This document shows, in pieces, positions 24,353-25,618 of a DNA stretch of 29,058 nucleotides (positions are counted from its first letter, which is position 1; the number at the start of each line of letters is the position of its first letter). The notes beneath the pieces were generated by a model that worked only from the letters and a program-made list of their open reading frames with translations, was not told the DNA's origin and did no database searches. Made by a program: the position numbers and the translations under genes. This DNA is from Escherichia coli (lineage in GTDB: Bacteria; Pseudomonadota; Gammaproteobacteria; Enterobacterales; Enterobacteriaceae). Where the stretch lies: assembly GCF_003334315.1 (NCBI RefSeq), contig NZ_QOWR01000058.1; one strand, given 5' to 3'.

Positions 24353-25618
24353 GTGTCAAAGGCAACCGAACAAAACGACAAGCTCAAGCGGGCGATAATT
24401 ATTTCAGCAGTGCTGCATGTCATCTTATTTGCGGCGCTGATCTGGAGTTCGTTCGATGAGAATATAGAAGCTTCAGCCGGAGGCGGCGGTGGTTCGTCCA
24501 TCGACGCTGTCATGGTTGATTCAGGTGCGGTAGTTGAGCAGTACAAACGCATGCAAAGCCAGGAATCAAGCGCGAAGCGTTCTGATGAACAGCGCAAGAT
24601 GAAGGAACAGCAGGCTGCTGAAGAACTGCGTGAGAAACAAGCGGCTGAACAGGAACGCCTGAAGCAACTTGAGAAAGAGCGGTTAGCGGCTCAGGAGCAG
24701 AAAAAGCAGGCTGAAGAAGCCGCAAAACAGGCCGAGTTAAAGCAGAAGCAAGCTGAAGAGGCGGCAGCGAAAGCGGCGGCAGATGCTAAAGCGAAGGCCG
24801 AAGCAGATGCTAAAGCTGCGGAAGAAGCAGCGAAGAAAGCGGCTGCAGACGCAAAGAAAAAAGCAGAAGCAGAAGCCGCCAAAGCCGCAGCCGAAGCGCA
24901 GAAAAAAGCCGAGGCAGCCGCTGCGGCACTGAAGAAGAAAGCGGAAGCGGCAGAAGCAGCTGCAGCTGAAGCAAGAAAGAAAGCGGCAACTGAAGCTGCT
25001 GAAAAAGCCAAAGCAGAAGCTGAGAAGAAAGCGGCTGCTGAAAAGGCTGCAGCTGATAAGAAAGCGGCAGCAGAGAAAGCTGCAGCCGACAAAAAAGCAG
25101 CAGAAAAAGCGGCTGCTGAAAAGGCAGCAGCTGATAAGAAAGCAGCGGCAGAAAAAGCCGCCGCAGACAAAAAAGCGGCAGCGGCAAAAGCTGCAGCTGA
25201 AAAAGCCGCTGCAGCAAAAGCGGCCGCAGAGGCAGATGATATTTTCGGTGAGCTAAGCTCTGGTAAGAATGCACCGAAAACGGGGGGAGGGGCGAAAGGG
25301 AACAATGCTTCGCCTGCCGGGAGTGGTAATACTAAAAACAATGGCGCATCAGGGGCCGATATCAATAACTATGCCGGGCAGATTAAATCTGCTATCGAAA
25401 GTAAGTTCTATGACGCATCGTCCTATGCAGGCAAAACCTGTACGCTGCGCATAAAACTGGCACCCGATGGTATGTTACTGGATATCAAACCTGAAGGTGG
25501 CGATCCCGCACTTTGTCAGGCTGCGTTGGCAGCAGCTAAACTTGCGAAGATCCCGAAACCACCAAGCCAGGCAGTATATGAAGTGTTCAAAAACGCGCCA
25601 TTGGACTTCAAACCGTAA
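24353..25618 (+). CDS. tolA: Tol-Pal system protein TolA
   Basis: Track ORF, 421 aa; N-terminal anchor, long Ala/Lys/Glu-rich helical domain II, C-terminal domain; GTG start. Confidence 0.95.
   Translation: MSKATEQNDKLKRAIIISAVLHVILFAALIWSSFDENIEASAGGGGGSSIDAVMVDSGAVVEQYKRMQSQESSAKRSDEQRKMKEQQAAEELREKQAAEQERLKQLEKERLAAQEQKKQAEEAAKQAELKQKQAEEAAAKAAADAKAKAEADAKAAEEAAKKAAADAKKKAEAEAAKAAAEAQKKAEAAAAALKKKAEAAEAAAAEARKKAATEAAEKAKAEAEKKAAAEKAAADKKAAAEKAAADKKAAEKAAAEKAAADKKAAAEKAAADKKAAAAKAAAEKAAAAKAAAEADDIFGELSSGKNAPKTGGGAKGNNASPAGSGNTKNNGASGADINNYAGQIKSAIESKFYDASSYAGKTCTLRIKLAPDGMLLDIKPEGGDPALCQAALAAAKLAKIPKPPSQAVYEVFKNAPLDFKP

Follow-up and report, generated by a model that had tools for sequence, protein, structure and literature searches.

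The closest described system is the intragenic tandem repeat of Escherichia coli tolA itself, reported as "13 imperfect repeats of 15 or 18 bp" by Zhou, Michiels & Aertsen (2012, PLoS One; PMC3477136). The natural range in 234 isolates was 8-16 units, with 13 units in 66% of them. Contractions, with a frequency of 6.9e-5 per cell, were RecA-dependent, raised in uvrD mutants and mutS-independent, and the predominant one was a deletion of five units ("5-TR"; PMC3477136). Tolerance of deoxycholate and of low pH plus salt, as well as plating of phage fd, depend on repeat number, deoxycholate tolerance spanning four orders of magnitude among engineered variants with 2-39 units (PMC3477136). The gene is also a VNTR/MLVA marker in Salmonella Enteritidis (SENTR1/SE-10, 45-bp unit; PMC2430564) and in Klebsiella pneumoniae (locus 53; PMC3948817).

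Two kinds of systems are relevant to the opposite DNA strand. Shadow ORFs arise where codon composition keeps the strand opposite a genuine bacterial gene free of stops over a long distance. The E. coli antisense overlapping genes pop (opposite ompA), asa, ano and nog1, on the other hand, have RNA-seq and Ribo-seq signals, mapped promoters and phenotypes (PMC7103648, PMC6294744, PMC5960689). An antisense RNA (asRNA) opposite tolA was reported in E. coli MG1655, where it coincides with ~48% partial termination of sense transcription, and in K. aerogenes, where an asRNA at the same position coincides with ~39% termination; the authors proposed collision-type transcriptional interference and termed the E. 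coli case "probable" (PMC10349824).

The window analysed here is a stretch of 29,058 nt from an E. coli genome (assembly GCF_003334315.1, contig NZ_QOWR01000058.1) that carries tolA. We are highly confident that the interval studied is TolA domain II, that the ORFs antisense to it are passive shadow ORFs and that its length varies by in-frame repeat units. The repeat polymorphism of tolA, its mechanism and its phenotypes were already published in 2012, the ORFs on the opposite strand are shadow ORFs of an ordinary kind, and there is little new at the locus. A companion paper on the E. coli tolA repeat (Zhou, Vanoirbeek, Aertsen & Michiels) reportedly appeared in Res Microbiol in the same year.

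Repeat anatomy and length variation of tolA

TolA, a cell envelope integrity protein of 421 aa, is encoded by the tolA CDS at 24353..25618 (plus strand), which starts with GTG. The K-12 lineage and many other complete genomes carry a tolA with 100% identity to this one. The protein scores far above the thresholds of two TolA equivalog models, NF007065 (554 bits, cut-off 213) and TIGR02794 (308 bits, cut-off 59), and these matches together with the K-12 identity bear out the assignment of 24600..25250 to TolA domain II made in the first-pass annotation. PDB entry 9k49 holds a full-length identical chain while residues 292-421 match entries 1tol, 2x9a, 3qdp and 1s62 (globular C-terminal domain). 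The three-domain layout of TolA is found: an N-terminal membrane anchor, an Ala/Lys/Glu-rich domain II, whose helicity is predicted, and the globular C-terminal domain. The gene order of the window is of the E. coli K-12 type (gltA-sdhCDAB-sucABCD-mngRAB-cydAB-ybgC-tolQRA-tolB-pal-cpoB-tRNAs) and includes the Tol-Pal context tolQ-tolR-tolA-tolB-pal-cpoB, with the flanking tolR and tolB annotated in 12 RefSeq genomes. An Rfam search identified no RNA family within tolA; a CpoB/ybgF thermometer is found at 27500..27638.

The low-complexity core of domain II extends over 24599..25250 (plus strand). The peptide encoded by 24600..25250 consists of 46% Ala, 21% Lys, 17% Glu, 5.5% Gln and 4% Asp and includes the motif AAEKAAADKKAA quoted in the first-pass annotation. 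This composition is shared by the equivalent domain in 17 other Enterobacterales (89-99% A/K/E/D/Q). Within the core, the C-terminal third of domain II holds a tandem-repeat tract (25022..25228, plus strand) made up of 13 imperfect units, each in frame and 15 or 18 nt long. They encode (E/D/A)K(K)AAA units of the EKKAAA, EKAAA, DKKAAA and AKAAA types, whose order, parsed by eye, is EKKAAA, EKAAA, DKKAAA, EKAAA, DKKAA, EKAAA, EKAAA, DKKAAA, EKAAA, DKKAAA, AKAAA, EKAAA, AKAAA. The units run head to tail and their lengths, as well as that of a 78-nt super-unit, are multiples of 3. Direct-repeat analysis identified copies spaced by 15 or 18 nt from ~24962 to 25230, Tandem Repeats Finder (TRF) gave periods of 15/30/33/48/78 in the tract, and nucleotide autocorrelation in 25010..25230 peaks at lags 15, 33, 48, 78 and 111, with z from 3.6 to 6.2 relative to a codon-shuffle null. 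The best array is a duplication of 78 nt, or five units, at 25023..25181 (plus strand; TRF 78 nt x 2.0, 88% matches, score 255), whose two copies are identical at 66 of 78 positions. It also carries the region's longest perfect direct repeats, both at lag 78: one of 20 nt (25028/25106) and one of 17 nt (25049/25127).

A minor variable repeat of 24 nt, encoding ADAKAKAE, is present in about two copies at 24766..24830 (plus strand; TRF period 24), and lag 24 is the sole autocorrelation peak in 24740..25009 (z 3.7, codon-shuffle null). No direct-repeat family or tandem array was found in 24600..24740 besides one weak two-copy pair; this segment is low-complexity only, without periodicity. The periodicity that the first-pass annotation had proposed to look for is present, as seen by autocorrelation and in the TRF arrays. 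Its extension of the repeats to the whole of 24600..25250 holds for 25022..25228 and for the weak 24-nt repeat, but not for the non-periodic 24600..24740. The unstable tract is narrower than that interval, being limited to 25022..25228 plus the minor 24-nt repeat.

Each of the 5,426 complete E. coli genomes has a megablast match to tolA. Its length was compared in 59 full-length entries, which are an evenly spaced sample of these genomes and not a full count. The 1266-nt form with 13 units accounts for 41 of the 59 (~69%). The other 18 have one of eleven lengths that differ from K-12 (1185, 1215, 1221, 1233, 1251, 1263, 1275, 1290, 1296, 1299 or 1311 nt), each difference being a multiple of 3. 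Every one of 12 sequenced alleles is an intact ORF, of 394-436 aa (8-16 units), in which domains I and III are amino-acid-invariant and all indels fall within domain II. Most of these indels (15, 30, 33, 45, 48 or 81 nt) are found in the 15/18-nt tract, the main site of TolA length variation, or just upstream. One allele (L009) carries instead a 24-nt insertion at 24782, one 24-nt unit gained; the resulting three-copy form is matched at ≥99% by ~60 of 5,423 genomes (~1%). Synonymous diversity is high in the domain II region. The earlier expectation of in-frame expansion and contraction with length differences between strains, and the comparison of domain II lengths suggested along with it, are upheld by this sample, in which the frame is kept from 1185 to 1311 nt.

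These data, sampled from 5,426 complete genomes against the 234 isolates of the 2012 study, reproduce its range (8-16 units) and its majority allele (~69% here, 66% there). Deletions reaching upstream of unit 1 occur in both, here in the Sakai allele. The triplication of the 24-nt unit is seen here while no mention of it was found in PMC3477136. The Salmonella and Klebsiella VNTRs lie in the same gene region and show the same in-frame copy-number polymorphism, but their unit sizes and sequences differ; independent turnover of the repeat families has taken place between genera.

Domain II is the central, putatively α-helical, periplasm-spanning domain of TolA, and 25022..25228 is a genuine in-frame array of 13 units that includes a 78-nt duplication, presumably a recent one. 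In the mechanism that we propose, whole units are gained or lost when the array recombines or slips, and TolA consequently varies from 394 to 436 aa (8-16 units) among strains while domains I and III stay invariant. The 78-nt duplication is likely the substrate of the common RecA-dependent 5-unit deletion. Peptides of the (EAAAK)n type are rigid helices, and the Pro-rich region of TonB is another spacer that spans the periplasm. By analogy with (EAAAK)n peptides, the (E/D)K(K)AAA periodicity of TolA and its i/i+4 charge pairs would fit a long, stable α-helical spacer. On the practical side, assembly from short reads and the comparison of TolA proteins by length can both go astray at the tract.

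Open frames opposite domain II

Both antisense ORFs listed in the first-pass annotation are present on the minus strand at exactly the coordinates it gave. The ORF at 24691..25365 (224 aa, TTG start) encodes an Ala/Phe/Ser-rich low-complexity product (AAAFSAAAF...) and belongs to a stop-free run of 225 codons (24694..25368). It runs ~115 nt past the low-complexity region, into domain III. The ORF at 24810..25274 (154 aa, GTG start) encodes a Leu/Pro/Gln-rich low-complexity product (LLPLPLF...) in a frame whose stop-free run has 173 codons (24813..25331). The third antisense frame, which is codon-aligned with tolA, is stop-free over 171 codons (24740..25252, minus strand). It was not listed as an ORF because it has no usable start codon, and just a 4-aa ORF is found inside it in every allele. 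The sense +1 frame is also open, over 107 codons (24933..25253, plus strand). Five of the six frames are open over 24933..25252. The codon-aligned antisense frame and the open sense +1 frame had been missed in the first-pass annotation, as had longer antisense frames in other genes of the window. By our own estimate random DNA, with 3/64 stops, has a mean stop-free run of ~21 codons; the tolA antisense runs are far longer.

This openness follows from the protein. Domain II is built almost exclusively of Ala, Lys, Glu, Asp and Gln, and uses the codons GCN, AAR, GAR, GAY and CAR, within or across which the opposite-strand stops TTA, CTA and TCA hardly ever occur. Their near absence leaves all three antisense frames (170-225 codons) and one shifted sense frame open. 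The tolA frames resemble other shadow ORFs in that codon composition drives them, and differ from these in the simultaneous openness of the three antisense frames and in their cause, the five-amino-acid alphabet and not codon bias alone.

The contribution of the protein was assessed by permuting synonymous codons within tolA, a null that keeps both the protein and the codon usage. The observed runs are in the range of the shuffled ones for the codon-aligned frame (171 codons versus 184 ± 44, p=0.74), the frame of the 154-aa ORF (173 versus 126 ± 38, p=0.10) and the frame of the 224-aa ORF (225 versus 262 ± 69, p=0.74). The length of the antisense ORFs does not go beyond what TolA protein and codon usage yield: the protein sequence alone dictates the antisense open frames of tolA. 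Such a shuffle is a quick demonstration that ORFs of this kind are by-products.

Neither antisense product belongs to a Pfam or NCBIfam family. An exact look-up in ~15 billion proteins gave no match for the 224-aa product, and for the 154-aa product only three short, nameless contigs. In the 90% cluster of the latter, the named members are called "primosomal protein DnaT, partial", an assignment that was rejected as a clustering artefact: their sequences are true pieces of DnaT and do not resemble the antisense product. Nothing besides tolA is annotated across the region in 12 RefSeq records. No SD-like motif precedes either antisense start, in a simple test that tolA itself also fails. No consensus promoter was found upstream of the antisense ORFs, the sole minus-strand sigma-70-like site (9/12 hexamer matches) being downstream of both.

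Variants among 13 E. coli alleles were counted in each frame. The 154-aa ORF frame has 37 non-synonymous and 6 synonymous variants and is without sign of purifying selection; the codon-aligned antisense frame has 42 and 4. The 224-aa ORF frame (13 non-synonymous, 35 synonymous) mirrors the tolA sense frame (15 and 33) because the third codon positions of the two coincide, and this count has no power. Antisense ORF lengths follow TolA repeat number in all E. coli alleles. Long antisense runs are ubiquitous in the 17 other Enterobacterales, yet neither where they end, nor their length, nor their start codon is conserved: runs in the 154-aa ORF frame have 69-227 codons, sometimes without a start, and those in the 224-aa ORF frame 94-247. 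The shuffles, the lack of a family, the near absence from predicted proteins, the missing purifying selection on the 154-aa frame and the unconserved extents support the view of the first-pass annotation that the antisense ORFs are not real genes.

Possible antisense transcription and alternative readings

The event of the reported asRNA presumably lies at about position 25313 of the window, just past the 3′ end of the repeats and close to where both antisense ORFs start, an approximate placement that relies on gene flags of neighbouring events and on K-12 coordinates. Given the reported asRNA, the strand opposite tolA should not be assumed to be untranscribed; antisense transcription, possibly near the ORF starts, has some support, which translation does not. 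A weak promoter-like candidate was found by motif scan on the minus strand (−35 at 25266..25261, −10 at 25241..25236), and was set aside for its 19-nt spacer and its lack of conservation in other genera. Eight to nine terminator-like motifs (hairpin plus T-run) are found on the minus strand in 24868..25229, as the complement of GCNGCN...AAAAA stretches of Ala/Lys codons. Their number exceeds that in dinucleotide shuffles (9 versus 2.8 ± 1.5), but not that in synonymous shuffles (8 versus 6.2 ± 2.0, p=0.26), and they were discarded as a signal, being compositional. They would tend to shorten an antisense transcript.

On one alternative reading an antisense ORF, with that of 224 aa as the best candidate, is a real overlapping gene, and the asRNA would be translated into a low-complexity hydrophobic protein. 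The long frame of this ORF has a start codon in 13 of 13 E. coli alleles, the asRNA event is placed near it, and its substitution pattern is uninformative against a gene. We nevertheless hold this reading to be extremely improbable: composition fully accounts for the ORF length, the antisense RNA would carry 8-9 hairpin plus U-run motifs inside the ORF, there is neither an SD-like motif nor a strong promoter, the product is without homologues and absent from the proteins searched, and the ORF ends vary across Enterobacterales. Genes like pop are likewise ORFs of a few hundred nt antisense to an envelope-protein gene, but those are backed by expression data and phenotypes; the tolA ORFs encode low-complexity products and are explained by composition. 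The searchable supplement text of papers on antisense overlapping genes does not mention tolA among its candidates. Alternatively, the asRNA could be functional and non-coding, attenuating tolA and the downstream tol-pal genes by transcriptional interference; the open frames would then be irrelevant and the antisense strand not inert. The asRNA coincides with drops in synthesis rate within tolA (48% in E. coli, 39% in K. aerogenes; PMC10349824) and the many terminator-like motifs of the minus strand would keep the RNA short. This role is unlikely, as its own authors go no further than "probable" for the E. coli case (PMC10349824), the one candidate promoter found nearby is weak and other genera do not conserve it, composition accounts for the terminator-like motifs, the mapping of the event is approximate, and tolA is absent from the searchable supplement text of a 3′-end mapping paper and of an in-vitro promoter paper. 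The asRNA, if confirmed, could tie the antisense strand to tol-pal expression.

The length polymorphism could also be selectively neutral repeat turnover and not an adaptive "contingency" mechanism. The predominance of one length (1266 nt, 13 units, ~69%), the scatter of the variants with few genomes each, the free divergence of repeat motifs between genera and the high synonymous diversity of the region are in favour of neutrality. Yet engineered variants with 2-39 units lie up to four orders of magnitude apart in their tolerance of deoxycholate, low pH plus salt is also tolerated to different degrees, phage fd plates differently on them (PMC3477136), and the narrow natural range of 8-16 units suggests stabilising selection, which makes neutrality a possible but rather doubtful reading. 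Repeats and antisense strand would be linked if the asRNA started just 3′ of the repeats, read into them and attenuated tol-pal by collision, its length or the 224-aa product changing with repeat number. In that case the length of TolA and the expression of its operon would both be adjusted by changes in the repeats, a combination that we consider very unlikely. The reading retained is that of TolA domain II with passive shadow ORFs opposite it and length variation by in-frame units.

Antisense-open genes elsewhere in the window

For annotation practice, ORFs opposite Ala/Lys/Glu-rich helical spacers like that of TolA should not be called genes. Antisense frames longer than those of tolA are present elsewhere in the window, in sdhA (593 codons), sucA (699 codons) and cydB (380 codons). 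The codon-aligned antisense frame is open over the full length of sdhA, cydB and pal (182 codons) because these genes have no TTA, CTA or TCA codons, which are few or absent in all four genes, sucA included.

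Antisense reading frames and their products

Very long antisense ORFs are found on the minus strand opposite sdhA (3797-5494; 565 aa), sucA (7328-9640; 770 aa) and cydB (20942-22222; 426 aa). Shadow ORFs of this kind are typical of genes with biased codon usage. The codons TTA, CTA and TCA are absent from sdhA, cydB and pal, and the codon-aligned antisense frame of these three genes is therefore open over the length of the gene. Inside tolA, the minus-strand shadow ORF 24810-25274 would code for a 154-aa product. The other members of the 90%-identity cluster to which this product is assigned are genuine DnaT fragments, and comparison of the cluster members revealed no sequence similarity between these fragments and the antisense product. 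Their grouping appears to be a clustering error of the protein collection, one that could misdirect name transfer.

Reported antisense RNA and terminator-like motifs in tolA

The minus strand of segment 24868-25229 carries nine terminator-like motifs (a hairpin followed by a T-run), compared to 2.8 ± 1.5 in dinucleotide shuffles. Synonymous shuffles of tolA yield 6.2 ± 2.0 such motifs, which identifies them as a by-product of the Ala and Lys codons. An antisense RNA opposite tolA was reported in E. coli MG1655, where it coincides with ~48% partial termination of sense transcription, and another was found at the matching position of tolA in K. aerogenes, coinciding with ~39% termination (PMC10349824). 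From the table in that study we infer that the antisense RNA site lies on the minus strand at approximately position 25313. The sense strand features a G-run (25281-25301; ACGGGGGGAGGGGCGAAAGGG) that codes for the Gly-rich linker between domains II and III. Any antisense RNA would carry the complement of this run as a C-rich segment, near the reported partial termination site.

Sequence diversity and distribution of tolA

Nucleotide diversity in the low-complexity region of domain II (24599-25228) is about ten times that found elsewhere in a set of 13 alleles that is skewed towards divergent ones. In this divergent-biased set it amounts to 2.9% in segment 24599-25021, and the repeat tract (25022-25228) reaches 1.8%, with values of 0.27% in domain I (24353-24493), 0.20% in domain III (25283-25618) and 0.4-0.6% at the ends of the neighbouring tolR and tolB. 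Nearly all nucleotide changes among the 13 alleles are found at third codon positions. The contrast between domain II and its surroundings might stem from weak codon selection, from intragenic conversion between repeats, or from flanks that are unusually conserved.

A second, minor variable repeat is present at 24766-24830 (positions 727-750 in L009, a tolA allele with a 24-nt insertion). Its 24-nt unit encodes ADAKAKAE and has a third copy in ~60 of the 5,423 complete genomes of E. coli; we found no mention of this gain in one published study of the tolA repeats (PMC3477136). Plasmid-labelled records account for two of the 5,430 tolA matches in complete E. coli genomes. Four complete genomes have no match with at least 80% query coverage; the sole match of this kind among those listed (H60) reaches the end of its circular record.

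Rfam elements elsewhere in the window

Rfam matches correspond to the CpoB/ybgF thermometer (27500-27638), to three elements of the naRNA4/REP type that follow sdhB and sucB (6332-6402, 10774-10936), and to four tRNAs with an RtT element (28565-29054).
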